NCBI GenBank assembly: GCA_965113315.1
Contig: OZ220371.1
Origin: Podarcis vaucheri
Lineage: Eukaryota
Reading direction: 5' to 3' (one strand)
DNA: 64,000 bases
The notes beneath the pieces were generated by a model. The model did no database searches, was not told the origin of the DNA, and saw only the letters and a list, made by a program, of their open reading frames with translations. A program made the translations under genes and the position numbers. Each line of letters begins with the position of its first letter. The stretch's first letter is position 1. Shown piece by piece: positions 3,001 to 63,160 of the stretch.

Positions 3001-3073
3001 CCTAGACTTTAACAGATGCTAAAACTGGTCAGTCTCTGTTTGGATCTAATTTTTATTTCGGTTTTATTTTAAG

Positions 3074-15690: not shown

Positions 15691-16746
15691 TTTAGGTTTC
15701 TTTTGTGTGTGTTTGATTACAGAATTTCCTCAATGCAGAGGTTGTTAATGATTCTATATAAAGTTGTGGTTTTAAAAAATAATAATAAAAAAAATCTTAA
15801 AAGTTGCAGTATTTTAAAAATATTTGCACGTGCGCTTTATGTTTCCCTTACCAGTCTGATATTTTGGTTTTTCTCTAATTCCGACCCTCCCTTTAACTAT
15901 GTTCAGGACAATTTCCTCCCACTCCCATCCCCTTTATTGTCTCTTTTTTCCATCCTTCTCTAATAAGCCCTGCTGTAACTTATATTTTCTTTATTCAGGT
16001 TGCAAAGGGTTTTTTGCTCCAATGGCTTCTTTCTTCCTTCCAACCAAAAAACAAAACATCACAATAATGCAGTTCTGTAATTTTAAATTCTGAACATAAC
16101 TGTCATCCAGACCACATCTCTAGATAGTAATGTTTATTACTTCATTCATTTCAAAATGTGGTTACGCCAGTGTGGCTGCCTTTTCATATCCTCATTCTCA
16201 TTTTTCTGCCCCAAAGCCAAGCCACCTGATGGTATCAAAGCTGGTACACTTGAGCTTTTAACCTGGAACACCCCATCCTCCAGTTTCAAATATATGATAC
16301 CGACCTTAGCCTTCTAAACTTATGAGGGAAGAGAAGCTGGGGGAAATACCAGACTACCTTATGGAACAGTGTCTAAACTTAAAGCTGCCACTTCATTGCT
16401 TTTCTGCCATCATGCTGAACAATGGTTACTGACCCCAAATAGAGAAACTGGACTTATTGTACAGAAAATGGATAAAGGTTACTAATAAGATATTTCAAGG
16501 GCAGTTATAGGCATGAAAATATTTTCTGCCTGGCCAGAGATTCCGCTGATACAACTTTTCCCATCACTGCATCTTTGATGCAAAAAAGTTGTACTGTATC
16601 AGCTATCAATACATCCCACAAAACATATTGATACACAACACCCCAATCTCCACTGAGTGGATGCACAAGATTCCAGACACTCACCCAGTTGGGCAAACAA
16701 GGCACAGCAGAGACTAGTGACTTTAAGAAATATGGTTTATCTACAC

Positions 16747-16882
16747 CAGGCACCCCCAACCTTCAGCCCTCCAGATGTTTTGGACTACAATTCCCATCAT
16801 CCCTGACTACTGGTCCTGTTAGCTAGGAATCGTGGGAGTTGTAGGCCAAAACATCTGGAGGGCCGCAGGTTGGGGATGCCTG
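16747..16882. mobile_element. hAT-type palindromic MITE
   Basis: TIRs CAGGCACCCCCAACCT / AGGTTGGGGATGCCTG; near-palindromic body; 8-bp TSD atctacac/atccagac. Confidence 0.8.
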
Positions 16883-17334
16883 ATCCAGACGTATTTACAC
16901 TTGGATCTACTGTGGAGGGAGTTCAGAACATTACATCTCAAAATGCCATCTAGATCCAGTGACTGTTCATTTTTAAATTTGCCATTAAGAGCTAGAACTT
17001 AGGGTTTTGTCCCCACTTTTCACCTCAGTTCTTCAGGCCGCCTTCCTGAAAAGCTTAGTTCAGCCACAAAGATCTGCCCTATATTTCCTGCTGTGAACAA
17101 AGAGACAAAGACTTCATTCAGCTTCTCTGCAATCTCCTTTTCCTTCACTTGCACACCTTTGACTTCTTTGTTGTTCAAAGATCTTATTGCCTTCCTGTTT
17201 CCCTACTTGTTATTGTTATATATATATATATATATAAAAATTATGGGACCTAATATTTTAAGTGATGGGGCGCATATGTGTGTGTGTGATCTCTTATTAT
17301 CTGGTTGCATATATTTTGTCTGAGTTTGTGTCCC

Positions 17335-18639: not shown

Positions 18640-18970
18640 TGTATTCCACCTTTTCCTCTAAAGAGCTGAAGGTGATGCACTGATGCTCTGCTCCCTCCTT
18701 GAACCCTGCAGTAGACAAGGCTGTGAGACAGTGATGGAGCCAAGGTCACGCAGTGAGCTTCATGGATTTGAACCCTGGCCTCCCAGATCCAAGTCCAACA
18801 CTCTAAACCCAGTATTTCCCAAACTTGGGTCTCCAGCTGTTTCTGGACTACAGTTCCCATCGTCCCTGACCACTGCTCCTGCTAACTAGGGGTGGTGAGA
18901 GTTGTAATCCAAAAACAGCTGGAGACCAAGTTTGGGGAACACTGCTCTAACCACTGCACCACACTGACTC
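18640..18970 (-). mobile_element. tRNA/CORE-type SINE interrupted by a MITE
   Basis: Reverse-strand A/B-box head (ccactgcaccacact; gatttgaaccctgg) and CORE-like caaggtcacgcagtgag. Confidence 0.6.
18810..18944. mobile_element. hAT MITE nested in the SINE
   Basis: TIRs CAGTATTTCCCAAACTT / AAGTTTGGGGAACACTG; ctctaa(a)cc duplicated on both sides. Confidence 0.75.
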
Positions 18971-19412: not shown

Positions 19413-19750
19413 GTGGGTGGCGCTGTGGTCTAAACCACTGAGCCTTGGGTTGGCTGTTCGAATCCCTCTGTGTGATGGGGTTAATTCTTGTTGCTCAGTC
19501 CCAGCTCCTGCCAACCTAGCAGTTCGAAAGCACGCCCCCCCCCAAAAAAAAAGTGCAAGTAGATTAATAGGTACCACTCCGATGAGAAGGTAAATGGATC
19601 TGGTGTCGGTGTTCCGTTGTGCTGGACACATGACCCGGATCAACTGTCTGCGGACAAACATCGGCTCCCTCAGCTTTAAAGCGATATAAACGCTGCAACC
19701 CCAGAGTAGTTCACGACTGGACTTAACTGTCAGGGGTCCCTTTACCTTTA
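19413..19750 (+). mobile_element. Sauria SINE
   Basis: GGGTGGCGCTGTGGTCTAAACCACTGAGCC head; CCTGCCAACCTAGCAGTTCGAAAGC..AAGTGCAAGTAGAT.AATAGGTACC core; CCTTTACCTTTA tail. Confidence 0.88.
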
Positions 19751-21635: not shown

Positions 21636-21772
21636 TCAGGGGACCTGCAGCCCTCCAGATGCTTGGGACTTCAACCCGCAACAGCAACAGCTCCAGCCAG
21701 TGGCCCCAGAGTTCAGGGATGATGGGAGTTGTATTCCAGCAATATCTGGAGGGCCATAGGTTCCCCACCCTA
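21636..21772. mobile_element. hAT-type MITE (degenerate)
   Basis: ccctccagat..ggactTcaac / ggagttgta..atctggagggcc inverted arms. Confidence 0.55.
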
Positions 21773-21906
21773 CCACAGTGGGCTTTCAATAGTGGGAAAG
21801 CTGGAGTGCAATAGACAGGAATGTCCATGAATGAAACACTTCACTCACATCCGCTGTAAAATGCAGAGGTCATGGCACTCCAGCACTTGCAATCCACCGT
21901 ATGGCA

Positions 21907-22033
21907 CTGTGTTTCTCCAGCTGTTTTTGGACAACAGTTCCCATCATCCCTGACCGCTGGTCCTGCAAGCTAGGGATGATAGGAGTTGTAGTAGTCCAAA
22001 AAACAGCTGGAGACCCAAGTCTGGGAAACACTG
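21907..22033. mobile_element. hAT MITE, same family as 18810 and 32975
   Basis: ctccagctgtttttggac / gtccaaaaaacagctggag arms; 8-bp TSD gtatggca/gtatggaa. Confidence 0.75.
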
Positions 22034-22113
22034 GTATGGAAGGTCATGACTTTGAGAATTAGTACAATGGGCAGGCCTTGAATGTGTGATGTGTAGTGAC
22101 TGATTTATATGTA

Positions 22114-22339
22114 CAGTGGTACCTCAGGTTACATACGCTTCAGGTTACAGACTCTGCTAACCCAGAAATAGTGCTTCAGGTTAAGAACTTTGCTTCAGGA
22201 TGAGAACAGAAATCGTGCTCCTGCTGTGCGGTGGCAGCAGGAGGCCCCATTAGCTAAAGTGGTGCTTCAGGTTAAGAACATTTTCAGGTTAAGAATGGAG
22301 CTCCGGAACAAATTAAGTACTTAACCCAAGGTACCACTG
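22114..22339 (+). mobile_element. Tigger-like MITE, copy A
   Basis: TIRs CAGTGGTACCTCAGGTTA / TAACCCAAGGTACCACTG; TA TSD; internal CTTCAGGTTAAG repeats. Confidence 0.88.
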
Positions 22340-23191
22340 TATACAAGAAGGGCAGCTTTACACTTATCTGACATTTCCAGTATTATTATTTGGGGTGGGG
22401 GAATGGATAGAGTTTCCACCTTTATGCTAACTGCTGGATGCAACAACTCAGAAAAGGTTTGATTTTGAAAACACACAGGCGAATCCACATAATTCCATAA
22501 TATGTGTGTGAGCTTGCGTGTGTGTTAAATATGTGAACATGGGTGAGGGGATTATTTGCTTGTTAACATTTGGATTTGGCAATCGTGGAGAAGTGGTTTC
22601 CTAGCCACGGCTGTATTAATTTATATAATGCAACTGACTGACTTCCTAATCGGTCCGTGCTTTACCCAGCCAATGAAGCTGCAAGTGATGTCATGCTTGT
22701 AACTTGATATCCTTGCTGGAGCGCCTGTGTTTGCAAATTGGGATTAGCTCAGTGCCACTAGGAGAGAAATCCTCCCACTTTGTTCATCTGATTTGCAGGC
22801 AATGTTTATTCCTCCAAGGGCCACCAAACCCTGTCCCTAGACGCTGCCCTTAAGGCTTCTGAGACTGGCAGCAGCTGTTGCCCCAGCTGCAGGCTCCTGG
22901 CTCCACTGTTTCAGCGTTGCCGTGTCTGAAAAACTTGCTAGTCTTGCCTTCACACTCTTCTCTTCCTTTTTATAGCTGAGCACGAAGAAGAAGCCTTCCA
23001 GAAAGTGTGACTGTTCAATCTCATTGTTGCAGAGGTGGAACAATCTCACTTCCATCACTAAATAAGGAACAAATAGCACAAGGTGAAAGAATTTGCTTCT
23101 GTTCTTTTCCATGGTCTGTAATGTAATATATATAGAGAGCAAAAAATACGGGGTGTGTGTGTGTACACACACACACACACACACACACACA

Positions 23192-24908: not shown

Positions 24909-25014
24909 GGAATAGACCCAAATTGATTGAAATCCTTGGGAAATGTTTCCCATGACTAACTTACTGAAACTGATGGAACTTAAGCACAACTAAACTGCTC
25001 TGAGGTTTACAGTA

Positions 25015-25240
25015 CAGTGGTTCCTCAGGTTAAGAACTTAATTTGTTCTGGAGGTCCGTTCTTAACCTGAAACTGTTCTTAACCTGAAGCACCACTTTAG
25101 CTAATGGGGCTTCCCGCTGCTGCCACGCTGCCACCACACAATTTCTGTTCTCATCCTGAAGCAAAGTTCTTAACCTGAGGTACTATTTCTGGGTTAGCAG
25201 AGTCTGTAACCTGAAGCGTCTGTAAACCGAGGTACCACTG
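25015..25240 (-). mobile_element. Tigger-like MITE, copy B (reverse complement of 22114-22339)
   Basis: TIRs CAGTGGTTCCTCAGGTTA / TAAACCGAGGTACCACTG; TA TSD; same 226-bp length. Confidence 0.88.
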
Positions 25241-27127
25241 TATCTCTGAAAATGGAGAGTTCATTTCAGAATATTCATATTGCAATAGAAAAATCCTAAT
25301 TCTTCTTCAAAAGAAGGGCAGTTGTTTTCCTGTCCTTGCCTTGGAAAACATACAGAACAATTACCCTAAGAATAGATTAACAAAAGAGGGTCTATAAAGT
25401 CAGCAACCAATTCTATGGCAACCTCTCAATGACGCTTTACGCTTAACTATCTAGGATTATTTGAGTTTTCAAATGGATGAGACCAGGCCTGCGATTACTT
25501 AATTCAAGTATGCTTAAGTCCATGAAAGCTGGTTATGAAACTTAAAATTATGTGCTTTGCAAATTCCTATTTTCACCACAATTTTCAAAAATGCATTTTT
25601 TATGTTGCAAGATTTGGCCATTTGGGGGTCTTGTTTGTTTTCACCATTTCTTGTGCTCCCTATAGTATAAGCCATATTTTCTGTCCAGAAGGAAGAGCTC
25701 TTGGGGTCTCCAGAGCTCCCTTCCAAGCAGTTTGTTGGATAGCATGCATGGCCTGAGCCATTACGACACCTTTCTGCTACATTCTTCCTTTATTCCTGGA
25801 CTTGACAAATGTTAGCACAAGAAGCCTGCCTTTCTTCAAGCTATATTTGTTTAAACCACACGTCCATGATTCATTGTACCACACTTTAGCATGAAGATGT
25901 TGGAAGCCTCCTCTAATTAGCACTTAGCTTGGATTATAAAAGGGGTGATTTAAGGTAATTCATGCTCAAAGCTGGAGGCTAGGGGCAGGTTTGCACATTT
26001 GGGTGTGGGCACCACCTACATTTGGGTTTAGGCAATTATGGTTTGAATTCAGTGCAGGTAATGTAACAGACATAAGTTTCTGACCTCTCCTGAAATGCAT
26101 GCTGTACACAAACCCATCAACTGGCAATTATCTTACAGTACTACTTCCGCTGGCAAAAGGGATCATTAGGATTAATTGATGCATCATTTTTGGTCTTAGG
26201 TTATTTTTCTGTTCACTTTTTAGCTGATCCAGACTAGCACCAGGGGATGCGGAGAGGGACAGGAAGCTTCAAGCCATGCCCCCAATATGGATGAGCTAAT
26301 ATTTACTCTTAAAACAAAAAAGCCACTCATTTAGTAATTACATGAATGCCATATTTCATTTGGCTTCAAAACTGAGGAGTGCAATGAATTTTCTTAGGAT
26401 TCATGCAAATGCTAAACTCTGAAGGGTAATCTTTGACAGTCATGGGCATCTTAAACATCAAGGCTCATTCATTAGGCTTGTTCAAAGCTATACTAAGAAC
26501 CCTTTGTTTGTCCCTAATACAAGGACTCAGTTGAAAGGGATCCACTTCCTTTTGTGCTGGATCAACAGTGAGCTAGTTAATGTTTTAGTTTGATGATTAT
26601 TGAAATGAGTGTGGTTTCTGCACATTATTATTGGCTATTGGCCAGATGTAAATTCAGTTTGGCTAGTCAAGAGAGGATTAGCCCATTTTTAGGTTGCCTC
26701 TCCAATAACTTTGAGCTGCTGTACATTCGGCTGGCAGTTGAACAACACAGTGCGTGATATTGTGCTTTAGGAGACCCTGTTCTCCTAGCAAAGCCAAACA
26801 GCTTCTGTAGATGCAGCTGGAAAAGAATCCAGTGGTAAACATTCACTCACTAAATAATCGTTTTGAAATTACTCATACTTAAATTTTCTAAGACAATGTA
26901 TCTAAGGTGCCCGATGTATCTCCCAGTTACCTGGGAGAAAGTTTCACCGAGTCCAGTGGGATTTAACTCTGAATAAGGATTACCCTGTAAATTATTTTTA
27001 ATCATCTACAGATAAATATCCTACAAACATGCACCTGTTGCTGTTGGTTGTTCTAGTCTTCTGTGATCTCATATCCTTTATATCCAAAATGGAGAACCTG
27101 TGGACATCCCCTCCCAGCATCTCTAGC

Positions 27128-28695: not shown

Positions 28696-30949
28696 GAATG
28701 TGAGTACCAGGGTCATTGGCAGCTGTACTCAAAGGTATTACTCCATCCTATTTTCCTAGTAAAAGAAAGAGTACTAGCTGTGATACTTAGGCTGGATTCC
28801 TGGGCACTTTTTTCCATCTAAGCAATTGCCTGATTGTGGTGCGGTGCAAATCCAGAGTGCATGTGAATTGCACTCAAAGATCCACCAGGATGGAGGCTGC
28901 TCCTTAAACCACCACTACTCCTGTTTCAGCAGTGTCTACGCAGGAACTCATTATTCATGATTTCATCTTGCTACTTAAAATGTGTAATAGCTCAAAGGTT
29001 CCGTTGATGGATTTCTTCCAGCTCTTTGATGAGCCAAAGATAATTTCTCCATGTTCTCCCCTAACCAGTCCCCACTCCCTGTTTGTTGTTTAATGTTTAC
29101 ACTTGTGCTACATGTCTCTACTAGACTGGAAGATCCCCAGGGCAGGGATCTTATCATATTTGTCTAAGTAGCATGCACACCCATGAAGTGATAGATAGTA
29201 TTTGCAGCTGCAAAGCATGGTGGAAATTGCTACAGCGGAGTAAGCATATATGTTGGCTTTGTGTGTAATACCCCAGACTTTCAGTCCCTGTCAACTGAAT
29301 ACTCCATGGAAGCAAACAGAAATCTCTGCACAGCAATCTGGCACTCAGCAATCTTTTCCCACGTTATTTGATTGACATGGACAGAAAATTGCCTTTCCAA
29401 GCTCTTTGTACCTGCTTCATGTTTCAGAAATCAAGCCCAAGCATAGGAGTAAGGACACCTGACTATATAAAGTGCCTTCACTTTCCCAGTCTTTTACAGC
29501 TTCCTCTTCCCCAGAACACCTTCAACAAAATTATATCTTCTGCAGACCAACATATTTGAGTAACTTACTATTACTACTACCATACACAGCATTTTAATTT
29601 GCAAAGATTACTACTGCTGCTTTTGCCATCCAAGTACATGGCACTTTGCAGTGCAATGTGGGCACAAACAAAAACAGGTTCCTGCCCTTTTACAGTCTTT
29701 GTGTTGAACCCTACAAAGTATATAATTGCCACTTCTATTGTACAGGTGGGGAATTGTGACAGCATGGTTTGCTGAAGGCCACACTACAAACCTCTGATGA
29801 AGTTGGGACTTCAGCCAAGGTCTTCCATGACTAAGACTAATTCCCTCGTTCTCCCCTCTCTAAGCCTAAGGGCAGGGTAGCCAACACAGTGCTGGACTAC
29901 AAGCTCCAGATATTATTGGGCTACAACTCCCATAATCCTCTGACCATTGGTCATCCTGGCTGAGGCTGGCAACATCTGGGAGAGTAGCCATTGGCTACTC
30001 CTGCTTATACCCCTTCTCCATGCATAAGAGGAGCCCTGCTCCACTGGACCTAATATACAACTTTTCATGAGTAAGCAAACAGACCCTTCTCTGAAAATCC
30101 CACACACAGCTTACGGAATGCAATGGTCCTTCCCAGCCGTTTCTCCCCAGTGAGTTGTATTCAGTGGCATGTAGTAACTATAAGAACTTAGGCAAATTTG
30201 GTGTTTCCTCTTCCGCTTCCCCTCCCCCCTTTTCCCTTTTGTGTCTTCTCTTTCAGATTGTAAGCCTGAGGGCAAGGACTGCCCTGTTTCTTATTGATCT
30301 GTAAGCTGCTCTGGGAGCTTTTTTGGCTGAGGTGCAACCGTGTAAATAGATAATAAAGAAACATGAAGGCTCCATGTAGCTATCATAATTAATAGCCAGC
30401 CATTGTTAGACGGGTATCCTTATTCTCTTCAGTGGAGACAATGAACACACCCTTTTCATACCTTGAGCTGCTTCCTCCTTGGATGCAGTTGGTGGGAGAT
30501 GGCAGTGTGCACAGTACTTCTGTAGACCAAAGTGATGCTGATCTACAGTTCACCCAAGAACCAAAGGATACATGAAGATCTTTCCTTTCACGCAGATTGT
30601 CAAGGCCACTTCAACTTCATATTGACATTAGTTGATGCTGGAAGGACCTATTCTGGAGAGTTATTTAACTCTCCACTTCAGATTACCTGAGTCAAAGCAT
30701 TTTTTAAAAAAGGCACAGCAAGTGAGATGTTTCTGCAGTATGGCAGCCCCTCCCCCTCCCTAGATGCCTCTTGTGTATTTAGAGCAGGAGTGGGGAACTT
30801 TTGGTCCTCCAGATGCTGCTGAACTACAACTCCCATCAGCCCCAGCAAGCATGGCCAATGTCCATAGATGATGGAAACTGTAGTTCAGCAACAAAATGAC
30901 AAGCACAAATTCAATCATGACAAGAAAAAAACAGCCTATTGGTCTAGGA

Positions 30950-32974: not shown

Positions 32975-33097
32975 CAGGGTTTCCCAAACTCCAGCTGTTG
33001 TTGGAGTACAACTCTCATCATCTAGCAGGTCCAGCAATCAAGGATGGTGGGGATTGTAGTCGAAAAGCAGCTGGAGACCCAAGTTTGGGAAAGCCTA
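32975..33097. mobile_element. hAT MITE
   Basis: CAGGGTTTCCCAAACT / AGTTTGGGAAAGCCTA termini; palindromic body. Confidence 0.65.
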
Positions 33098-37935: not shown

Positions 37936-39210
37936 TTTCTGTGATGCGGAGGCAGGGGTAAATAGGAGAAGAATATGTGCTGTTTCAATAGGGCATGAAA
38001 ACAAAGGTGAGCTGCAGGTTAATCTGTAATGTATTTATTTATTTAGGCTATTTTAAGGCTGTTGTAGCCTTCATGTCAATGCATCCCAGGGTGGGAATGC
38101 AAGACACAAAAACACAAAGACAACAAAACGCACAACCGTAATATGTAAAGGCCTCTTTGAACAACAGGATCAGCAAAACCACAACTGGGTGAATCACGTT
38201 TATCAAGTGACTGTTATAGAGTTCATCAGCTGAAACCACAAAGCAGGCTACCTGCCCCGAACTAACTGACAACTCTGAAACACTGAAAATGCCTGGGCAA
38301 ACAAGTATGTCTTCCCTTGGTGCCAAAGTGTCTGGTCAATGCCAAGTGTGCTTCTAAGGGAAGGGCATTCCTCAAACAGGATGGCACTGCAGAGAAGGAT
38401 CTTTCCTGCAGCACTACCTAATGCAATTCTGGCACACACAATAGTGGTGTGCAGAGAATAGCCTCCTCTGAGCACTTGTCATTGGCAGCATAGTTTAGGG
38501 GAAATCACTTCTTTAGGTTTTTGGGTCCTAAGCTGTTTGTCAGCCATATCAGTGTTCGGCCTGGAAAGTGCAAGTTTGATCTTTAAAGGGAGACATTGTG
38601 TTTTACCTCTGAAAAAGAGAGAGATGCTTTTGGATTCCTGCTTTTCTAGAAATGTCACACTTTGATCTTCTACTCCTCATCCCTAATGTGGGAAAACTCT
38701 TTGCAGTTACTCGGTGGGAAGGAGAAATGTATTCTACCTTTGTCAGGACTGCTTTCTGGATATTCAAATGTTTTCAAATGTTCCAGGGTTCAGTTTCTCA
38801 CATTGAAAACAATTGTGAGGGCTCAGCCCTGGCACAAATTGAACCCTAGAAGGCTAGGGAATGGCTTATAGACCTGGCATCATAGCCAAAGATTAGACTA
38901 GATGAATTATCTGGTCCACTCTATGATCCTACAGGTGAATGCAGTGTTGCAGAAGAAGCACATTCATGCATTCACTTGGCCTCTGCTATGCCATGAGACG
39001 TCTGACAACCATCCCACACAGGCAAGTTCTGCCAGGGTCACACAATAAATTAAACAGTTTTGCAAACAGCTACAACCCCACAGCCTGGAAAGCTGTTGTC
39101 TTTGTGGTTAGCAAGGTTCCTGCTGGTTGTGTAACCATACAGACAGAGTTACTAGTTCAAAGGGCAATAAATTTTCTCTTTTATAAAGGATCACCTGTAT
39201 TTCATCTGCC

Positions 39211-39524
39211 TGTTGATATAGCAGAGTCCATTTGCACAACGGAATGATGAATAGTACGTGCCACATGCTTTAAGTTGCTTTATTTACAGTTCATTGTAGA
39301 GAAATTACAATCATGCATCTTGCCTCTGAGGGAGCAGAGAAGCAACCGTCCTTCTCCTCGGACTAACGAACACCGAGAGAGAACAGAGAAAAACAGGAAA
39401 CCAGTGTACGTCACATCCAGTTTCCCTTTCCCGTGGGAAAACCCAACAGTGCTCTGACTGTGGAATGTAAACATTGTCTTGTGACAGGCACTTCGCTGCA
39501 CAGTGAAGAGAGCAGAAACTAACA
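39211..39524 (-). repeat. 3' LTR (314 bp)
   Basis: TGTTG...TAACA ends; minus-strand AATAAA at 39279-39284; no differences from 43910-44223 seen by eye. Confidence 0.97.
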
Positions 39525-39538
39525 TCCTCCCCCTTTCT
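39525..39538 (-). other. Polypurine tract
   Basis: Minus-strand AGAAAGGGGGAGGA directly abutting the 3' LTR. Confidence 0.92.
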
Positions 39539-39571
39539 GTGAACATCACTGGGCAGCGTGTTCGTACAATA

Positions 39572-42500
39572 TCAGTACAAACCCAACTTCTGTACATAGG
39601 TACAGTGTTGATCCCTTGATACAATCTTGGACAATACATCAGCAGGAATTTCATTACCTGGCATATAGGACACCGTTACGAGTCCCTTCTGAATATGTTC
39701 CCTAGCATGTTGCACCTTCAATTGCAAGTGCTTCGTGCTTTGCTTGCAACCTTCTGAATTCAGCAAAGCCAAACATGCCTTGTTGTCCTGGTAAACCTGG
39801 ATTGGACATTTGACAGGAATTTTCATGTCTTTGCACAATTGTAACAACCATTCACAATCCTTAAGTGAATAAGACAGTGCATTCAGTTCAGCTTCACAAG
39901 TACTTAAGCTAATTGTTGTTTGCTTCTTGCATGACCAATCAAATAGACCCTGATTGTACATGTAGCAAACTCCAGACGTACTTTTCCTGTCTGTAGTGTC
40001 ACTTCCAAAACTTGCATCTGCAAAAATCTCAAGACCACCAGACTTCTGATTGTTAAATCTCAGTCTGTAATGCATAGTGCCTTTCAAATAGCGTGCTATG
40101 CGTTTCAGAGCTTTCCAATCCTTAACAGTAGGATTGTTAACTTGTCTGCTTAGCAAATTACAGCTAACAGCAATGTCAGGTCTTGAACATCTGGCAATGA
40201 AGTTTAGCTTGCCTAGCACACTTCTGTACAGTGTAGTGTCAGAAAATGCTTCTTCAGTGTCTTCTACCTGATAACCTGTTGTCATGGGTGTGTCTACAGG
40301 GTTAGCATCCATCAGGTTTAGTTTGTTTAACACATCAGCAATTTTCCTTGACTGGTGTACTAGAATGTTACCACTTTGATCTTTCTCTATTTCCAGAGAT
40401 AGGTAGTTGTTTACCTCACCAAGATCTTTCATGTCAAAGTGCTCTTTCAGTTGAGCTAGGGCGTTATTGTACATTGAGACATCTTTCCAAAAGAATAAAA
40501 TATCATCAACATAAAACAAACAATACAGCTTCTTTTGCCCTTCCTCTTTGACAAATACACATGGATCAGCTTTCCCTTGCTGAAAACCTAGAGAAAACAA
40601 TGCTTCAGTGAGTTTTGTGTGCCAACACCGTGCACTTTGTTTGAGACCATAAAGGGACTTCTTCAGAGCACAAACAAATCCCTGTTTTACCTGTACGCCA
40701 TCAGGTGGAAGCATATAAAGTGATTCACCTAGAGATCCGTACAAAAACGCTGTATTTACATCGTGGTGACTAATGTGTAGATTTTCCTCTGCAGCTAGCT
40801 TGAGCATGAGCCTTATGCTCTCATATCTCACCGTGGGTGAGTAGGTCTCGTGATAGTCTTCACCTGGTACCTGTGCAAAACCTCTGGCTACCAATCTGGC
40901 TTTGTGTCTGACTATCTTGCCATTTTGATCAGTCTTCGCTTTGAAGACCCATTTGCTTCCAAGCAGTTTCATTCCTGGAACTTCTGGAACTAGCTCCCAT
41001 GTTTTGTTCTTTTCTAAGGAATCAAGCTCAGCCTTCATGGCGTTTAACCATGGCTCAGCTTCCTTAGAATCCAAATCCTGGATTTCTTGGAAACTTGAAG
41101 GTTCAAATACCTTCTTGGAGCTTTTAACAGCTGCTACTGCTGTCTTGGCATATTCATCAGCAAATCTCTTTGGAGGTCTGCCTTTTGTAGCTCTTTGTGA
41201 CCTGCGAATCATCCTTTGGTCTTCAACACTTTCCTCTTCCTTCTTAGGAGAAAAGTGACCTATTGTGAACAATGGTTCTTCCAATTCCTGATCAGAGCTT
41301 TCAGAGGGTCGCATAGAGGCTTTCGCACTCTTGAAATCCTCTGAAGTATCCGATTCAGTTTCAGACTCAGAATCAGAACCTTCATCAGTGGGTGTGGGTT
41401 GTTGTTGCTTATACTCAGTCTCATCACTGTCATCAGGATAACATTGAAAAATTCCCACGTTCTCCCCCCACTTGGCATTGTACTCAACACTTCTTGTGAG
41501 CCTTATTGTCTTAGAGTCAGTCATCATTATTCTGTAAGAACCTTTCTGATAACCTAGAAAGATACCATGCAATCCACGTTTGCCTAATTTGGAGCTTTGT
41601 GGTGAGTGAATCCACATATCAGAACCAAAAATTCTCATGTGTTTGATGTATGGTTTCTTACCAAACATCTTCTCATACGGGGTACAACCAATCGCTGAAG
41701 ATAACCTGCGATTGTAACTGTAAACAAAACATGAGAGAGATTCGGCCCAATAACTCTCTGGAAGATTTGCATCATGCAGCAAGGTTTTTAACCCTTGAAG
41801 CAATGTTTGATTTGCCCTTTCGCAAAGTCCATTCTGCCATGGCGAGCGAGGACTGGACAAATCGTGTTGAATTCCTTTCTCAGTCAGAAAAGCTTCAAAC
41901 TGCTGAGAAGTGAATTCCCCTCCACGATCTGTGAAAAGAATTTTTATCTTCTTACCATGCACATTTTCCAACCAAGCACAGAATTCCTTGAACCTTGGAA
42001 AAGCCTCTGATTTTTGCTTGAGATTGTACACATAAATATACCTGGAAAATGCATCAATGAGAACCATGAAGAACCTATTGCCACCTAAAGAGGGCGATAG
42101 TGGACCAACTAAATCAGCATGAACAATCTGGTATGGTTCTGTAGCTTGCCTACTAGACACCTTACCTTTCGCAGCCATTTTCACCTTGTTTGCTGCGCAT
42201 GCCTTGCACTTCATGTGGTACCTGCAGGGTTTAATAGTCATACCTTCAACCAAGGCAGGCATTTTAGATACTGCCTCAAAATGCAAATGACCAAATTTTC
42301 GGTGAAAATCATGAATACATTCTGCATGCAAACTTTTGTTAGAACCTGCAATGCAACAAGTCTCATTCTGCACAACATCATCATAATACAAAACAAACAA
42401 ACGATCAACGCATTCAGCATGCAATACATAATCGTCTTTCTTTGTGATGGTGCATTTCTTGTTCTTGAAGGAAACGTCAATGTTGCGTTCATTCAGCTGC

Positions 42501-43570
42501 ATCACACTGAGAAGATTGTGTGTGGCATCTGGAACGTAAAGTACATCATGTATCTCTAAGTCCAAACTGTGAAGAACAACAGTTCCGTAGCCTTGACTGG
42601 GGATCGTGTGGTCATCCGCCTGGTGAATCGCACCTTCCTGCGGTGTAAAAGACACGAACAGTCTCTTATCGTTGCACATGTGGTGTGTAGCTGCTGAATC
42701 AACAACGAAGAAAGATCTAGACGTCTTCTGGACCTTTGCAACCTTTGGAGTGAAGCGTGAGACCATTGCCTTGTGCTGCGTTGTCCTGGACACCGGACCT
42801 TTGCCTTTGCTTTGGCCTTTTCCACGCGATGAGCTTCCGCTGCGCTGCTCTGTCTTGGCCTTGGGATATTTGCAATCCCTCTCCATATGGCCTAGACGTC
42901 CACACGAGTAGCATTTCACTGCCTTCAAAGCTTTGGCGCCCTCTGGTGGTTCCACTGCACTCTGGGATGACGTCTGTAAAGACTCCCCCATACCCATGCA
43001 GCTAGCACCCCGGCGATCTGCTTCATTCTGAATCACGGCAGTAACATAGGCTACTGTGAGCTGAGCAGTTGGTTGAACAGCAATCTGAGTGGCAACGGAC
43101 TCCCAACTTGGTCCCAAAGAATGTAGTATCATAAAGGAATACACAGCCTCTGGAAAGTTGAGTCCTCTCTGTTGCAGCTCATGTCTCAGATTCTGCATCT
43201 CCATCAGGTGTTTACGCACATCTCCACCTTCAGCAAGAGCCATATCATGCAGCTTGGCATAGTAGTACATTGAGGAACCAGCCTCTGTCCTCAAGTGAGC
43301 CTGTCTTAAAGAGTCCCAAATTTCTCTGGCTGTGGTCTTTCCACGCAACAGACAGAGCTCTTCTGGGGATACTATCAACGTAAGCGTTCCCCGTGCTTTG
43401 GAATCCTTAGCATTCCATTCAGCTGTAACTGGAGCTGGGGGGTTGTCTGTAATAACATTAAACAGACCTTCTTTCCGCAGAACTGCCTCTGCATATAGCA
43501 CCCACTCCGTGTAGTTATTCTTATTGAGCTTAGGAATCCCAAAAGCATCAACCAGCCTTACGTTTGCCAT
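39572..43570 (-). CDS. Copia Gag-Pol polyprotein (~1332 aa from the probable ATG at 43570; frame open to 43726)
   Basis: Gag PKLNKNNYTEW; zinc knuckle CYSCGRLGHMERDC; protease VVDSAATHHM; integrase HHCC (HRKFGH..CKAC) and D..D35E (HADL/TDRGGEF/NGLCER); RT KARLVARGF, YGLKQS, YVDD; RNase H FADAS, EAE, QDN, ADVLSK. Integrase before RT is the copia domain order. Confidence 0.97.
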   Translation of the reverse strand: MANVRLVDAFGIPKLNKNNYTEWVLYAEAVLRKEGLFNVITDNPPAPVTAEWNAKDSKARGTLTLIVSPEELCLLRGKTTAREIWDSLRQAHLRTEAGSSMYYYAKLHDMALAEGGDVRKHLMEMQNLRHELQQRGLNFPEAVYSFMILHSLGPSWESVATQIAVQPTAQLTVAYVTAVIQNEADRRGASCMGMGESLQTSSQSAVEPPEGAKALKAVKCYSCGRLGHMERDCKYPKAKTEQRSGSSSRGKGQSKGKGPVSRTTQHKAMVSRFTPKVAKVQKTSRSFFVVDSAATHHMCNDKRLFVSFTPQEGAIHQADDHTIPSQGYGTVVLHSLDLEIHDVLYVPDATHNLLSVMQLNERNIDVSFKNKKCTITKKDDYVLHAECVDRLFVLYYDDVVQNETCCIAGSNKSLHAECIHDFHRKFGHLHFEAVSKMPALVEGMTIKPCRYHMKCKACAANKVKMAAKGKVSSRQATEPYQIVHADLVGPLSPSLGGNRFFMVLIDAFSRYIYVYNLKQKSEAFPRFKEFCAWLENVHGKKIKILFTDRGGEFTSQQFEAFLTEKGIQHDLSSPRSPWQNGLCERANQTLLQGLKTLLHDANLPESYWAESLSCFVYSYNRRLSSAIGCTPYEKMFGKKPYIKHMRIFGSDMWIHSPQSSKLGKRGLHGIFLGYQKGSYRIMMTDSKTIRLTRSVEYNAKWGENVGIFQCYPDDSDETEYKQQQPTPTDEGSDSESETESDTSEDFKSAKASMRPSESSDQELEEPLFTIGHFSPKKEEESVEDQRMIRRSQRATKGRPPKRFADEYAKTAVAAVKSSKKVFEPSSFQEIQDLDSKEAEPWLNAMKAELDSLEKNKTWELVPEVPGMKLLGSKWVFKAKTDQNGKIVRHKARLVARGFAQVPGEDYHETYSPTVRYESIRLMLKLAAEENLHISHHDVNTAFLYGSLGESLYMLPPDGVQVKQGFVCALKKSLYGLKQSARCWHTKLTEALFSLGFQQGKADPCVFVKEEGQKKLYCLFYVDDILFFWKDVSMYNNALAQLKEHFDMKDLGEVNNYLSLEIEKDQSGNILVHQSRKIADVLNKLNLMDANPVDTPMTTGYQVEDTEEAFSDTTLYRSVLGKLNFIARCSRPDIAVSCNLLSRQVNNPTVKDWKALKRIARYLKGTMHYRLRFNNQKSGGLEIFADASFGSDTTDRKSTSGVCYMYNQGLFDWSCKKQTTISLSTCEAELNALSYSLKDCEWLLQLCKDMKIPVKCPIQVYQDNKACLALLNSEGCKQSTKHLQLKVQHAREHIQKGLVTVSYMPGNEIPADVLSKIVSRDQHCTYVQKLGLY

Positions 43571-43891
43571 TTCTGCTGCGTCACAGTCCTGCAGCTTCAG
43601 CCAAAAGCACTTGTAAAAGTACTTTCGTTTTCTTAGCCATCCAAGCCTGTGAGCTTGTGCCTTTAGAGCCTTGCCTGTAACACGGCAAAACGGCTTTAAA
43701 AGTTCAAAGTCCAGCCATAAAACCATAAACTAGGAGCTGGCAGGCTGCCAGGCTGCTCCGGGCAGCATGAGCACATACCTTCATCAATCAAACACGACGC
43801 GCAGAGCAGATAACGCGATCCGTTCCTCTGTACCTCTGCCGGCATTCCGACTCGGCTGGAGTCTTTAATCCTCAGTTTGATTTACGTCTTT

Positions 43892-43905
43892 CTGGGCCCG
43901 GAACC
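43892..43905 (-). other. Primer-binding site, half-tRNA-iMet type with 2 mismatches
   Basis: Minus strand GGTTCCGGGCCCAG, 4 nt after the 5' LTR; the copia-type site is GGTTATGGGCCCAG. Confidence 0.7.
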
Positions 43906-43909
43906 AAAA

Positions 43910-44223
43910 TGTTGATATAGCAGAGTCCATTTGCACAACGGAATGATGAATAGTACGTGCCACATGCTTTAAGTTGCTTTATTTACAGTTCATTGTAGAG
44001 AAATTACAATCATGCATCTTGCCTCTGAGGGAGCAGAGAAGCAACCGTCCTTCTCCTCGGACTAACGAACACCGAGAGAGAACAGAGAAAAACAGGAAAC
44101 CAGTGTACGTCACATCCAGTTTCCCTTTCCCGTGGGAAAACCCAACAGTGCTCTGACTGTGGAATGTAAACATTGTCTTGTGACAGGCACTTCGCTGCAC
44201 AGTGAAGAGAGCAGAAACTAACA
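43910..44223 (-). repeat. 5' LTR (314 bp)
   Basis: Identical to 39211-39524; the PBS follows it on the minus strand. Confidence 0.97.
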
Positions 44224-46959
44224 CTGCCTACATGGACTTGAAAGAGAGGCAAAGCTGGGAGCCTGGGGGAAAGAAATCCAACATTACACAAAGATACGTA
44301 GTCATCAGAAATAGGTCCTTCATAAAAGGAATATTCACAGGGCTTTTATGTCAGAAGGTTGTAACCAATTTGCATATTCTAATTTCACACTGGAGTCACA
44401 CAATTCCTACAATTTGTATGAAACCGGTGGTAGAATTATGCCCCATGCCTTCTGGTGCCTTCTGAAGCTCACTATGCCTTATTAACAATACTTATTAACA
44501 GTCAGCAATGAAAATGGGTTCACACATAAATGTGCACATTGCCAATGAAAGACATAGTGTGCAGTATTCCTTAGGTAAAAGAATACCTTGTCTTAAGTCC
44601 TCTGGACTTTAGTCACCCTGGGAAACTTGCTGAAAGGGTGGGGTGTAAATAATCATTTATGAATGAATGAACAAGTGTATGATTGAATAACTTCAAGGAG
44701 CACTGAAAGAGCTTCTCTTTATAGAGTACCATTTCCACACAAGAGTTCTCACCTTTGCCTTCTCCTTGTGCCCTGTTCAGAATTTGACATGCATTCTTAG
44801 CTCTGAATGCTTTGAACTTTTTCAAGGTCGAGTGCAGACACAATACTGACTTGCTGGTGGTGGTTCATGAATCAGGAGCCAGTTTGGGGTGACATGCACC
44901 CCTCCTGCAATCTTTCCTTCCCTTTCCAGCATCACCTCCCTCCCTCTCTTTTCATGCCTGCCTCATGTATGTGTTTTGGCTAAGTGTGGGGAGGTGTGGG
45001 GATATTCCAGGGGAGAGCGAGTGGGACAGTTGGAGGGCAAATTGGCATCTGACCACTTCACAGGTCAGAGCTGAGAATTGGTGACTGATGATGATGACGA
45101 TGACCAGGGTGAGAGCATAGAAGCTGAGATACTAGGTGAAAGGCATGAAGTTTCTGTTGAGGCTGGTGGAGTGCTAGATTAAATTTGGTTTTTGCCTCAT
45201 TGTGTCAGACTGCAGTGTTGTAGTGCGGTCTTTTCTACAGGAATCTGGGGGATGCTGGAATTGGTAATTGTTGAACATGAGCAATGGGGTTTGTAGGTAT
45301 GTGTGTGTTTATGTGAGTGAATGCATGGAGGTGTGGCTTACTGAGGCATGGGTTTGTTAGCAGTTGTGGGATTTGTGGGATTATTGAATGAGCAGAATCT
45401 GGTTTTATGGATTTGGACACTTTGGGTGCAGTATTTCATTTGAGTTGTTTTATATACTATATTATTTAATTTTGTTTAATTTACTTTGCAAATCGCTTTG
45501 TGATAGCCTGGTGAAAGGCAGTATATATGAAAGGGATATTTATTGATGATTATATATTCCATAAAACGCATAAACCACTTGATTGTTTAAGAAAATCTCA
45601 AAGAAGTTTACAAAAATATATAATAAATAAAAGAAAAACCAACAACAATAATTAAAAGTTAAAACAACAATAGACTAAAAACAGATTAAAACTCACACAG
45701 CTTTCTAAACATGTGGGTAGACTTGTCTAAACAAAAATGTTTTTAGCAAATACAAAAAACCACACCCTGAAGGTGGCTGCCTGTTAGTAGTAGGTGGGGG
45801 GTTCCAAAATGTAGTTGATGCTACACTAAAATATATAATACAAGCACCGACAACTTTATTTTTCAATGCATGTTAAAAACATACCTGTTCACACAGGCTT
45901 TCCTCGACAAGATATGCTACTGCCCAAAATGCATATTGTTGTGGCTCTTTGTGCGAGTTTTATTTAGAAGATATGCACTCAAATGAAGAAAGAGCAGCAA
46001 GAGCTTCGGGCCATTGAGTAATGGATGGTAGGTGTTTTATCTTTCCATTCTTGAAGTGTAAGCCTCTTTGCAACCATAAGAGTGATGCTTTTAAGTAAAT
46101 AAAATAAAGGAGACACATGGCCATGTGACCGCTCCTTTCCACATACTTCATGGCACATCCAGCCACACGAGGAACTGATTGTCAGTGGCCTCTGGCAATG
46201 GGGTGAGCTGTGAATGTGCTATCACACACCACTTCCTTGCATTTTTGGGAAATGACTGGAACATGTTGAAGCACCTGCCAGTCTTGTGGATGGAGGCTTC
46301 AGATAACCAGCTATGCAGCACATAAACAGTCCTGGCTGCCCTTACCCCCCAGCTTCTAATCAAAAGCCACCAGAATAACTACAACATTTCAACAGTGAGC
46401 TCTGCATGCACCTCCGAGTGAACTCCTGAGCATCCAAGAGCCATGACTGGAGGGGTGATAGGAATGAGAAACACGGCATGTTGAACACGGCAAAGCTTTC
46501 TGTTTGCTTTTTGGTTCCTGAGCTTTAAACCCTGAAAGAAAGATAGGAATGTTTGCTTTCTTCATACCTATGAGCGCTCAACATTTTATAATAAATGGAG
46601 ATTATCTGACATTAGCCTGTCAGCATCATCATAAGGCTTGGGAGATGGGATTTGTTTTCCGTTCCCTGATCTGCAAATGTGGGCTGCTAGCAGCATGACA
46701 TGCACAGATGCTGATACTGTTCAGCAGGTGATGGTGACTAATGTTAGACTGGCAACCAGAATTTGATGGATGGCTCTGAAGTGACACCCAAAGAATGACG
46801 AATTAGGATGGCCAAAGGCCAGAAAAATGGTGGCACTTAAACTAAGTAATGGTTAGGGATAGATTTGCTAGATGGCATGGTTGTGAGGCCTTAGCTTTAA
46901 AACTGGGCTATGTTGCGTGTGTTCAATTGGCATGCCATAGAAACTGAAAACTGAGAGTA

Positions 46960-49505: not shown

Positions 49506-49780
49506 GACAGGACATTAAGATATATAGTTGCTAATATCTTTCCTTTTTGTTGTTGTAAATAAAAATATGCCCTTTTCCCTTATGGGGTATCCAAGAGCCC
49601 ATATAGAGTCCTTACATAGGTTCCCTATTGTTTAATAAGCAATAGATTTTTGCTATAAAATTCTGTTTTTGAGGGGAAAATACATCTGCTTACTTAGGAC
49701 TTACATTGGATACAACCAGCTGTTTTTGAAGTTTTTGTAAGTTCGTGTTTTAAAATTGTAGGTCACTTTGGAGGCCCTTT

Positions 49781-50016
49781 CCTGCCAACCTAGCAGTTTG
49801 AAAGCACGTCAAAGTGCAAGTAGATAAATAGGTACCGCTCCGGCGGGAAGGTAAACGGTGCTTCCGTGCACTGCTCTGGTTTGCCAGAAGCAGCTTAGTC
49901 ATGCTGGCCACATGACCTGGAAGCTATACGCCGGCTCCCTCGGCCAATAAAGCGAGGTGAGCCCCGCAACCCCAGAGTCGGCCACGACTGGACCTAATGG
50001 TCAGGGGTCCTTTACC
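49781..50016 (+). mobile_element. 5'-truncated Sauria SINE with 13-bp TSD
   Basis: TSD TTGGAGGCCCTTT at 49768-49780 and 50017-50029; Sauria core and CCTTTACC tail. Confidence 0.9.
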
Positions 50017-51827
50017 TTGGAGGCCCTTTGGGGGGGCTGAAAGGCAGCTGAAAAATAACTTTACATGATGATAATAAAAATTAAAGGCAGTGGTTCCAAG
50101 AGAAGGATCAGGGAAGAAAAGGATGTCTGAAAATATGTATCACGCCTGCAGCTGTATCAAAAAGAAGGTCTGGCTGTATAACAAATCAGCCACACACCCA
50201 TACCTGAAAGGTACCCAGGGGCTTCTGACACCTACAACTTTAGCAATCTTACTATAACATGATTCTGGACCAAAAACAGTTCAGTACAGTTGATGCTCAT
50301 CTGTGCTGTTCTTCCTAACACAATCACTTCTGGCCCTTTTAGGGAGCGATTCTACACTGTTATCGGTAACAACTTCAGTCAAACACCTATCCAGACTCTG
50401 CCGAAGCAGCTGTTGCTTAAAAGTGGAAAAGGAAAGAAGGCTTGGGGAGCTGATCACCAAGCTGATCTTTATCTGTAAAGGGAAAAGGTCAGAGGTTAGG
50501 GTGGGGTAAAGGAAATCTTACTGTCACTTGAAACCCCTAGAATGTTCACAGGGCTATCCTTCCTATCGACCCCGATCTTCTTACCCCCCCCCCCCAAGCT
50601 GCCTCCTTCTGTCTGCTTATTAGCAGCCTGCTGAGAAAGACCATAGATGATGTTGTTTGCTTTAAGGAGAGCTGCCACTTTATTGGCCCAATTAACATAC
50701 AGCAGCCTTAGGCCCTAAAATTCCCAACACCGCCTGTAACTATGCTTGATCACAGAACTGGCAGCCTCCAACTTCCAGCAGGAAATGGAGAAAGTGGCAG
50801 CTAAAATACCCTGCCTTCCAGCTGAGCCCTCCTTGACCGGGCGTCCACCAGACATTTTGGACTACAACAGCCATCAGCCCCAGCCAATGTGCGTTGGCTA
50901 AGGCTGATGGGTATTGTAGTGCAAAGTGTGTCTACACGGTGGGACCTGGTTGGGGAAGGCTGTCTTTGCCTATCTGTGAGCCTGTTGCTCAAGAGCTACT
51001 TTTTAATGACTCCCTGTCTCTCCGCCAGGGAGTGGCAGTGACCTGCCCCGTTCTTCTTTAACAGGTGACAAAAGATTATGTCATGAAGGTAAAATATGAA
51101 GTTGCAAAGCTGGTCTAGCTCAGGGTTTGCATTGTCTTGAGCTGGAATAAGCTGAGCAATGCTGGTGTAGCCTTTGGTTGGCTCTGGCAACAGTCCCTCA
51201 TTGGAGGAGCACAGCAAAGCAACTTTCCTGGCCATAGTATTGAAGGGGCAGCAGGCCGTTCTCAGCTGGATCAGATGGAGGCGTCTCCCTGCTGCCTTTC
51301 CCTGCATCAGACCATCAGTCCATCCAACCCAGTAATGTCTGCCCTGACTGGCAGGTAGGGCAGGAGTCTATCCCAGCTGTACCAATTGGGGGGTTGAGAT
51401 TTGGACCTTCTGCATGCAAGGCAGAGCTACAGTCTTGGCCCCCTCCCACCTGCTCACCCAACTGAACAGCTGCCTCACCCTGGCTAATGGGAGGGGACTC
51501 GCCTCCAATGAGGTGGTTCCTTAATTTCTCACCCTTTCACTCTCATCCCCTCCCAGACCTGTTTAGGGCTGGAGCAGGCCAAGGCGTGATTGGCAGTGGT
51601 TGACTTAAATGGCAAGCTCCACAATATGCCTCCCACACAAAGTGTGCCTTGTCAGAGTTGGAAGGGATGCTTGCTATACTTTTGGCTGGTGGGAAGGGGA
51701 GCTGGCGTCCACCACTCACAACTACTCCCCTTTTGCAAATGATTGAGGAGTGATAGACATAAATCAAACACCTAGATAGAGAACCGCATTCTGGCTATGC
51801 TTCCATGCTGTCCCCATAGAGGTCGCT

Positions 51828-52176
51828 TAAAGGTAAAGGTAAAGTACCCCTGACAGTTAAGTCCAGTTGCGAACGACTCTGGGGTTGCGGCGCTCATCTT
51901 GCTTTACTGGCCGAGAGAGCTGACGTTTGTCCGCAAACAGTTTTTCCAGGTCATGTGACCAGCATGACTAAGCCGCTTCTGGCGAAACCAGAGCAGTGCA
52001 CGGAAATGCCGTTTACCTTCCCGCCGGAGTGGTACCTATTTATCTACTTGCACTTTGGCCTGCTTTTGAACTGCTAGGTTGGCAGGAGCTGGGACCGAGC
52101 AACGGGGGCTCACTCCATCATGGGGATTCGAACTGCCGACCTTCCGATCGGCAAGCCCTAGACTCAGTGGTTTAGA
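51828..52176 (-). mobile_element. Sauria SINE, near full length
   Basis: (AAAGGT)n tail on the + strand; body matches the copies at 19413 and 49781. Confidence 0.9.
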
Positions 52177-60129: not shown

Positions 60130-60796
60130 TCATAGATCATAGAATCATAGAGTTAGAATAGACCACAAGGGCCATCGAGTCCAACCCCCTGCCAAGCAGG
60201 AAACACCATCAGAGCACTCCTGACAACCATATGTCAGGAGTGCTCTGATGGTGTTTCCTGCTTGGCAGGGGGTCGGACTCGATGGCCCTTGTGGTCTCTT
60301 CCAACTCTATGATTCTATGATTCTATGACATATGGTTGTCAAGCCTCTGCTTAAAGACCTCCAAAGTAGGAGACTCCACCACACTCCTTGGCAGCAAATT
60401 CCACTGTCGAACAGCTCTTACTGTCAGGAAGTTCTTCCTAATGTTTAGGTGGAATCTTCTTTCTTGTAGTTTGGATCCATTGCTCCATGTCCGCTTCTCT
60501 GGAGCAGCAGAAAACAACCTTTCTCCCTCCTCTATATGACATCCTTTTATATATTTGAACATGGCTATCATATCACCCCTTAACCTCCTCTTCTCCAGGC
60601 TAAACATGCCCAGCTCCCTTAGCCGTTCCTCATAAGGCATCATTTCCAGGCCTTTGACCATTTTGGTTGCCCTCCTCTGGACAGGTTCCAGTTTGTCAGT
60701 GTCCTTCTTGAACTGTGGTGCCCAGAACTGGACACAGTACTCCAGGTGAGGTCTGACCAGAGCAGAATACAGTGGCACTATTACTTCCCTTGATTT
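60130..60796 (-). mobile_element. Young 5'-truncated CR1 LINE with inverted tail duplication
   Basis: Open ORF2 C-terminus [25 protein letters not shown]...[13 protein letters not shown]...WNLLP...[10 protein letters not shown]; (ATTCTATG)n tail. Confidence 0.92.
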
Positions 60797-62230: not shown

Positions 62231-62919
62231 CCTCTAGGGCTACTAAACCCCATGTTTATGTCCAGTCTAGCTTCATGCAATAAAACTTTATGTCAAACAA
62301 AAAAAGTTCTTATCCAAAATGTATGATTAACCAAGCAGTTTGGATGTTCCCCCTTGACTTCTGGAGACATGACATTATTCTGTAATGGTTAATTGCTAGA
62401 CAGGTTCGTACCATCTGGTAAATGCACAAGCACTGTTGTCCAGCTGCCAATGAAACTGTCAGCCAGTTCATGCAGTGCATTTTTAGTCCACGTGAGCTGT
62501 CCGGACTGTCCCCAGATTCACACTCACAGGGATCAGCATGATGGCTGGGATCCAGTTAACTGCCTTAGGCACACCCAGAGATTTAGCAGGCTGAGTGAAA
62601 TTATTACCTTTTAATTGTGCAGCAGACCCTCCTCCATATGACGTATCAACGCTGTCCTTGAAACACCCTCCATTTTCAAATGAGCTTGCCACAGAACATG
62701 GTGGCTGCTGTTGAAGAATCAGAAGTCCATGCAACAATTGCATTGTTCATTGGATTCTGGATAATAGGTGCGACAAGTGATCATGGACAGTGTCACGGGT
62801 TGAGGTGGAAGCTGTTTTGGATCACTCATTTTTCAAATCCTAAATTCAGTCCTCTACATTTCTGCAGCAATTTGCAATTTTGTTTTTAAAAAAATCCTCA
62901 TGAACATTCATCAGCAGTA

Positions 62920-63160
62920 CAGTGGTACCTTGGTTTACAACCATAATCCGTTCCGGAGTTCCGTTCATAAACCAAAACAGGTTGTAACCCAAGGTGTGCT
63001 TTCGCCAATGGGGCCTTCCCAAAAAATTTGTTCGTAATCCAAAAAAAATGGGTTGTAATCCAAAAAAAGTTTGCAAACCGGGACACGCAGTTCCAGTTTT
63101 GATGTGTTTGTAATCCAAAATGTATGCAAACCAGACTGTTTGCAAACCAAGGTACCACTG
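62920..63160. mobile_element. Tigger-like MITE
   Basis: TIRs CAGTGGTACCTTGGTTT / AAACCAAGGTACCACTG; TA TSD. Confidence 0.88.

Follow-up and report, generated by a model that had tools for sequence, protein, structure and literature searches.

Is the Ty1/copia retrotransposon in a 64,000-nucleotide stretch of the Podarcis vaucheri genome (GenBank assembly GCA_965113315.1, contig OZ220371.1; hereafter the window) a recent arrival from another host or a young member of a lineage that squamates have long carried? An earlier note, made from the letters of the window, had described an intact and very recent long terminal repeat (LTR) retrotransposon at this locus and had proposed it as a candidate for horizontal acquisition. 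The analysis makes it very likely that the element is a full-length, autonomous-looking squamate Ty1/copia retrotransposon, probably of the Mtanga clade, that is at most a few million years (My) old, lies ~31 kb downstream of the FHDC1 gene and belongs to a vertically inherited lineage.

The element is full length, spans 5,013 bp and occupies minus-strand positions 39211–44223. It is bounded by two direct LTRs of 314 bp (5′ LTR, 43910–44223; 3′ LTR, 39211–39524; both on the minus strand), which have TG...CA ends (TGTTAG...CAACA) and contain an AATAAA motif, located at position 241 of the 3′ LTR. The earlier note had seen no difference between the LTRs by eye, and a computational comparison likewise gave 0 differences. 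The identity stops exactly at both LTR ends, not one base further. The element is flanked on the plus strand by the perfect target-site duplication (TSD) CTGCC that the note had listed (39206–39210 on the left and 44224–44228 on the right), whose 5-bp length falls in the 4–6 bp range of Ty1/copia elements. The polypurine tract (PPT) of the note is also present as a 14-nt, all-purine sequence (AGAAAGGGGGAGGA; 39525–39538, minus strand) that directly adjoins the 3′ LTR. A primer-binding site (PBS) that matches the initiator tRNA-Met (tRNA-iMet) at 12 of 14 positions follows the 5′ LTR. The window contains no N, and a blastn search of it detected neither a second copy of the element nor a solo LTR or a partial copy. 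Each LTR also carries a strong, pyrimidine-rich splice-acceptor-like site (minus strand, 44025 and 39326), and these sites could trap minus-strand host transcripts.

Between the LTRs, a single minus-strand gag-pol frame (43729–39572) runs without stops for 1,385 codons from stop to stop. Translation is likely to start at Met54 (43570), which gives a protein of 1,332 amino acids. Met54 is favored because its context (GCAGAAATGG) is better than the weak context of the in-frame upstream ATG at 43726 and because the homology of P0003, a stored protein, with the element protein starts at residue 62. Pfam assigns a copia-type Gag capsid to residues 81–241 (43007–43489; PF14223, E 2e-28), a CCHC zinc knuckle of the nucleocapsid type to residues 272–287 (42869–42916) and a protease β-barrel to residues 341–416 (42482–42709; Pol_BBD), where the aspartic protease has a DSA motif with D344. 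The integrase region (41756–42403) combines an HHCC zinc finger (H476, H481, C508 and C511), covered by a pre-integrase model at residues 443–515 that scores under its curated cut-off, with a catalytic core matched at residues 530–658 (D539-D601-X35-E637). An SH3-like integrase C-terminal domain follows (residues 689–751; 41477–41665; PF25597). The linker between integrase and reverse transcriptase (41150–41443) is acidic and of low complexity with a basic RRSQRATKGRPPKRF stretch at its end, and its outline is conserved in P0003. The copia-type reverse transcriptase (RT) spans residues 908–1150 (40280–41008; RVT_2, PF07727, E 7.9e-69) and contains D990 and YVDD at residues 1073–1076. The RNase H (RH), placed at 39626–40024 from its residue numbers, contains D1238, E1281, D1315 and D1364. 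All of these features are encoded on the minus strand.

The domain order, established by Pfam and the RNase H residues, is Gag-protease-integrase-RT-RH, with the integrase ahead of the RT as in copia elements. Gmr1-like gypsy elements have the same domain order as copia, and the element is therefore separable from them through its matches to copia-type RT and Gag. The 16 sequences matched in the Protein Data Bank comprise integrases (best 7z0h_W, E 2.5e-14) and the "Copia VLP protein", which has a solved structure and matches Gag (8vvw_A, E 3.4e-7). The stop-free ~4-kb reading frame with retained CCHC, HHCC, D-D35-E, YVDD and RNase H acidic residues, as proposed in the earlier note, was borne out by Pfam and alignment. 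The zinc-binding and catalytic residues checked (CCHC, D344, HHCC, DDE, RT D990, D1075 and D1076, and RNase H) are intact in 18 of 18 cases. In a count over 60 aligned homologues, each of the 18 is common to 57–60 of the 58–60 homologues that have a residue in the column. An endogenous retrovirus or another env-bearing element was considered and rejected: the stop codon is separated from the PPT by 33 nt, which leaves no room for env, and the integrase precedes the RT.

The leader (43570–43909, minus strand), which extends from the 5′ LTR to the likely start codon, contains seven ATGs. Six of them open short frames of 4–49 codons, and the seventh shares the gag-pol frame and would lengthen the protein by 52 residues. 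A splice-site scan identified donor-like sites at 43778, which is near-consensus and lies in the leader, and at 42165, and detected no internal sense-strand acceptor in the element under a strict rule. The leader ATGs and the 43778 donor may point to control of translation or to an intron in the leader. In Drosophila copia, an excess of Gag is made by splicing.

How old is the insertion? With 0 differences in 314 LTR positions, the 95% upper bound on divergence is 0.95%, which corresponds to 1.6 My at 3e-9 and to 4.8 My at 1e-9 substitutions per site per year, rates that are an assumption of the analysis. Combining the LTRs with the open reading frame lowers the upper age to 0.8–3.6 My under neutral decay, in a model in which 4.9% of substitutions make a stop and indels amount to 0–10% of substitutions. 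The ratio of observed to expected CpG is 0.45 in the element and 0.23 and 0.22 in its two flanks, and the high ratio of the element fits a short exposure to methylation decay. The insertion is thus dated to no more than about a few million years ago and is probably much younger. The identical LTRs are compatible with the very young age claimed in the earlier note and set an upper bound of ~1.6–4.8 My under the assumed rates. The LTR identity might alternatively be an assembly artefact produced by collapse or polishing, in which case the insertion would be older than it appears; in general, high-copy repeats of 314 bp can be homogenized in short-read assemblies. Such an artefact is very improbable here: the exact TSD at both junctions, the lack of N in the window, the open 4-kb reading frame and the high CpG ratio are all consistent with youth independently of the LTRs.

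Where the element comes from was addressed through its relatives. A search with the full-length protein returned P0003 at 56% identity, after which identities fall to ~30%, and a search with the RT-RH region returned P0143 at 79% identity over 285 amino acids. The best named RT-RH match is a gene model of Elgaria (46%), a model of Rhineura reaches 40%, and proteins of Trichuris, Araneus and Cordylochernes are ~40–42% identical. No exact match to the element protein was present in the protein collection. For the phylogeny, 405 stored proteins yielded 396 BLAST hits and, after a coverage filter, 102 rows, of which 69 entered the tree (24 labelled rows and the top 45 of 78 unlabelled rows; IQ-TREE, LG+G4, midpoint root). 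In this tree, the query groups with P0003 and P0143 (support 99/90), the trio groups with Elgaria (100/100), and the resulting group is joined by Rhineura (100/98). The squamate group lies inside a 35-row group with nematode (Trichuris) and arachnid rows (98/96), while plant, oomycete and butterfly rows lie outside it. A quick tree agrees with the careful tree of 69 rows. The squamate group is also retained when 30 rows are analysed in a quick tree with the C20 mixture model (SH-aLRT 98). Forcing the query trio together with two arachnid rows was rejected (p-AU 1.2e-6), a test group that was picked after the first tree.

Two of these relatives have unusual gene models. P0149 (XP_061477847.1), annotated in Rhineura as "ATG10 isoform X1", matches copia Gag and RT-RH over residues 1–927 of its 928. 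P0292 (XP_062977616.1), the Elgaria model, joins a copia RT-RH to LINE-type (long interspersed nuclear element) endonuclease and RT domains. Both are probably annotation chimeras, with exonisation as the alternative.

The grouping with squamate proteins is what a long residence in squamates predicts. Most likely, the element belongs to the Mtanga clade and its lineage has been inherited vertically within squamates for a long time. Horizontal acquisition, as advanced in the earlier note, is not supported by the RT-RH tree. A recent transfer from outside the squamates, for example from an arthropod, would accord with the observations that the nearest named elements past the squamates are those of a nematode and arachnids and that P0003 and P0143, the two closest relatives, have no host name. 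Klai et al. 2025 (PMC11889832) also allow that Mtanga reached sarcopterygians or tetrapods by horizontal transfer in the distant past. However, the ~40–42% RT-RH identity of the named non-squamates is far under the level of a recent transfer, the element nests with the Elgaria and Rhineura elements, and its grouping with arachnids is rejected by the test above. Of 24 squamate species, moreover, 23 carry copia elements in abundance and diversity (PMC11889832). A recent horizontal transfer is accordingly unsupported, with a very slim probability on the present sequences.

The presence of copia in this host is also less surprising than the earlier note had implied. Its central observation, an amniote genome with an intact, young Ty1/copia element, was confirmed by the LTRs, the TSD, the domains and the catalytic residues, and its statement that copia is essentially absent from mammals and birds agrees with published surveys, which report absence (PMC4350176; PMC11889832). 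According to Klai et al. 2025 (PMC11889832), however, squamates hold 66% of 49,920 copia copies from 263 metazoan genomes and are the most copia-rich animals surveyed. In the same survey, Podarcis muralis has 1,004 detected copies and 44 "Pomur" clusters, Zootoca has 304 copies, all 750 classified amniote copia elements fall into the Mtanga clade, and T. muris has eight Mtanga clusters. In the corn snake, a 5,832-bp copia underlies two colour morphs through insertions in OCA2 (amelanism) and in CLCN2 (Stripe); one base distinguishes these two inserts, 85 copies are >95% identical, and the authors regard the element as possibly active (PMC4657000, PMC11948899). Copia subfamilies are reported as expanded and transcribed in hydrophiine snakes (PMC8872380), Mtanga-like copia as abundant in the tuatara (PMC7116210) and Mtanga-like elements as present and transcribed in frogs (PMC4131045). 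Because lizards and snakes are already known to carry copia elements by the hundreds to thousands, some possibly active, the young and intact insertion is ordinary for its host group. A literature search on copia in Podarcis gave one unrelated paper, so open-access publications may lack a description of this particular family, but its kind is well known.

The least ordinary part of the element is its PBS. This site (GGTTCCGGGCCCAG, 43892–43905, minus strand) sits 4 nt from the 5′ LTR behind a TTTT spacer and is complementary at 12 of 14 positions to the anticodon arm of tRNA-iMet, as in half-tRNA priming. Both mismatches lie opposite anticodon bases. The PBS named in the earlier note is therefore present after the 5′ LTR, but it is not perfect and does not abut the LTR. 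The 12/14 match is the sole match of this kind in the window, where shuffling predicts 0.36, and its significance comes from its position, for which the shuffle rate gives a chance of ~3e-5. The PBS-tRNA duplex has a predicted energy of −22.1 kcal/mol; a perfect site would reach −27.6 kcal/mol, the acceptor end gives −7.4 kcal/mol, and none of 5,000 random 26-mers from the window formed a duplex as stable. The anticodon-arm sequence was taken from the probe printed in PMC1797187 and not from a lizard tRNA.

Two other modes of priming were rejected. The acceptor-end tRNA-iMet motif, used by Pseudovirus-type copia elements, has no match in the element at up to two mismatches, and its duplex is weak at the −7.4 kcal/mol given above; the motif has eight matches elsewhere in the window, which is the chance level. 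Self-priming of the Tf1/TAR type was rejected, since the PBS zone and the LTR are complementary over 6 nt at most. Repeat libraries commonly list half-tRNA sites for animal copia elements, and the basic mode may well be catalogued there. Priming by a half-tRNA from nucleotide 40 defines Hemivirus-type elements such as copia, 1731, Ty5 and Osser (PMC1181622), and primer type is described as independent of phylogeny (PMC1181622; PMC6317226). No account of a squamate or Mtanga PBS was found in the open-access literature, including the accessible parts of PMC3587641, PMC3212995 and PMC7773854. Minus-strand priming of the element would most likely proceed from the 5′ half of tRNA-iMet through its anticodon arm.

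Priming from the CCA end of a different, full-length tRNA must be weighed against this assignment. The sequence TGGTTCC, read after a 3-nt spacer, presumably fits the 3′ end of tRNA-Glu, and a 3-nt spacer followed by TGG is the geometry of the corn-snake element as read by eye. The unbroken match would be 7 nt long, whereas the tRNA-iMet anticodon arm matches the site at 12 of 14 positions in the expected place. Use of tRNA-Glu is accordingly improbable, and the anticodon arm of tRNA-iMet is retained as the preferred primer.

A further alternative accepts the anticodon-arm site but regards the copy as a young, dead-on-arrival product of an active master, in which the PBS mismatches or silencing block priming. 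The mismatches are located four bases from the primer 3′ end and cost ~5.5 kcal/mol, and the spacer has 4 nt compared with 3 nt in the corn-snake element. Identical LTRs and an intact reading frame, on the other hand, leave little time for two adjacent substitutions, so that a functional template is the more likely source of the site, and PBSs with up to two mismatches occur in 11% of the elements in a plant survey (PMC6317226). A dead copy is thus unlikely, though with a chance large enough to be taken seriously, and descent from a functional template is preferred. The imperfect PBS remains a small caution against presuming that the element is competent for transposition.

The copia cycle comprises LTR-driven transcription, polyprotein cleavage, particle assembly, reverse transcription primed by a tRNA and the PPT, and integration by a DDE enzyme. 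By this scheme, RNA polymerase II would transcribe the element from the 5′ LTR to the AATAAA motif in the 3′ LTR. The product would be translated into one Gag-protease-integrase-RT-RH polyprotein, whose domains are present in the sequence and whose cleavage by its own protease is expected from the family, as is the formation of a cytoplasmic particle that lacks an envelope. Minus-strand DNA would be primed by the 5′ half of tRNA-iMet pairing through the anticodon arm with the 12/14 site, and the plus strand would be primed at the PPT. Two strand transfers would then generate the identical LTRs. Finally, the DDE integrase would insert the DNA with a 5-bp stagger, the observed product of which is the CTGCC duplication.

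Comparison with described systems places the element among known copia elements. The squamate Mtanga elements, represented by "Pomur" of P. muralis, share its superfamily and host group, and the tree unites it with two named squamate copia proteins; the main text of the Klai et al. 2025 survey (PMC11889832) is silent on their PBS. Corn-snake Copia is likewise young and full length, its LTRs have TG...CA ends and its TSD is 5 bp long (PMC4657000, PMC11948899). It is 5.8 kb long, whereas the present element is 5.0 kb long, in a comparison made by description and not by alignment. In its supplement, the corn-snake PBS, read by eye, corresponds to the tRNA-iMet acceptor end (TGGTAGC) after a 3-nt spacer, unlike the anticodon-arm type of the present element. 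The described corn-snake insertions are also intronic with exonised LTR pieces, whereas the Podarcis insertion is ~31 kb away from FHDC1, on its downstream side, and no gene was detected around it. Hemivirus copias (Drosophila copia, 1731, Ty5 and Osser) share the single gag-pol reading frame and the position of the integrase before the RT (PMC1181622). Their PBS is also complementary to the tRNA-iMet anticodon arm, and the Gag of the present element matches the Copia VLP protein. The present element differs from them in its two anticodon-position mismatches, its 4-nt spacer and its vertebrate host. As primer type does not track phylogeny (PMC1181622), the likeness appears to be one of mechanism, not of clade. 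Mtanga-like copia elements of the tuatara (PMC7116210) and frogs (PMC4131045), abundant in that lepidosaur and transcribed in frogs, belong to other hosts and are known here by description.

Several points weigh against the reading of the element as a young, vertically inherited Mtanga copy. A Mtanga reference is absent from the rows of the trees, and the clade name is inferred. The named squamate relatives are two in number, and both are chimeric gene models. The branch to the group of query and Elgaria is long (0.52 and 1.09 changes per column in the two trees), and the closest relatives, P0003 (56%) and P0143 (79% over 285 amino acids), carry no host name. The PBS has two mismatches at anticodon positions, and the arm sequence with which it was compared is not that of a lizard.

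The host locus is identified by FHDC1, whose last coding exon lies at 6256–8322 on the plus strand (long frame 6262–8322) with a further exon at 3065–3238. Among the 120 matches listed, the product of the last exon is 97.5% identical over 690 amino acids to that of Podarcis muralis, 79% to Rhineura, 74% to Elgaria and 51–54% to turtles and birds, with no exact match in the protein collection. These identities mark the host as a Podarcis or a very closely related lacertid. The element begins ~31 kb past the FHDC1 stop. The window has 50 stop-to-stop frames of at least 100 amino acids; 39 of them were searched with Pfam and gave no credible domain, and thus no second gene or coding transposon was found near the insertion. 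Scans of the window for tRNAs and Rfam families gave 0 matches. For TRIM2, the usual gene downstream of FHDC1, three short motifs had no match in six frames, a search that short or non-coding exons would escape, so that the insertion may yet lie in an intron.

Other repeats are present in the window. A near-perfect hairpin at 60136–60321, with 90-nt arms that are 97% complementary and 6 nt apart and with short ATTCTATG-like repeat ends, looks like a head-to-head duplication of a LINE 3′ end, presumably of the CR1 family. One short interspersed repeat, which resembles Sauria SINE, has copies at 49780–50018, 51836–52087 and 19473–19742, two of which are inverted ~2 kb apart with 84–93% complementarity. 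A family of short, internally palindromic repeats similar to miniature inverted-repeat transposable elements occurs at 16740–16889, 18815–18939, 21643–21990, 30790–30912 and 33023–33092. An inverted pair of 230-nt repeats at 22112–22341 and 25013–25242 (89%, 2.7 kb apart) has CAGTACAGTGG ends, is also represented at 62915–62989 and is presumably of the Tc1/mariner type.

For the biology of its host group, the element is one more young and intact copia copy where copia is most abundant, and as such it matters little. As a clean specimen with exact ends and all catalytic residues, it may be useful for scoring the presence or absence of the insertion across Podarcis populations and for probing whether lacertid copia still causes mutations, as corn-snake copia apparently does. 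More tentatively, the element could represent a currently mobile lacertid copia family that carries a non-canonical half-tRNA site family-wide, with unpaired anticodon bases and a 4-nt spacer, and that has switched its priming relative to corn-snake copia, a possibility to which less than an even chance is given. No description of such a family or switch was found in the open-access text searched. If the site is family-wide and functional, it would establish half-tRNA priming in a vertebrate and a primer switch within one host radiation, and it would offer an amniote system for studying the origin of the half-tRNA primer.

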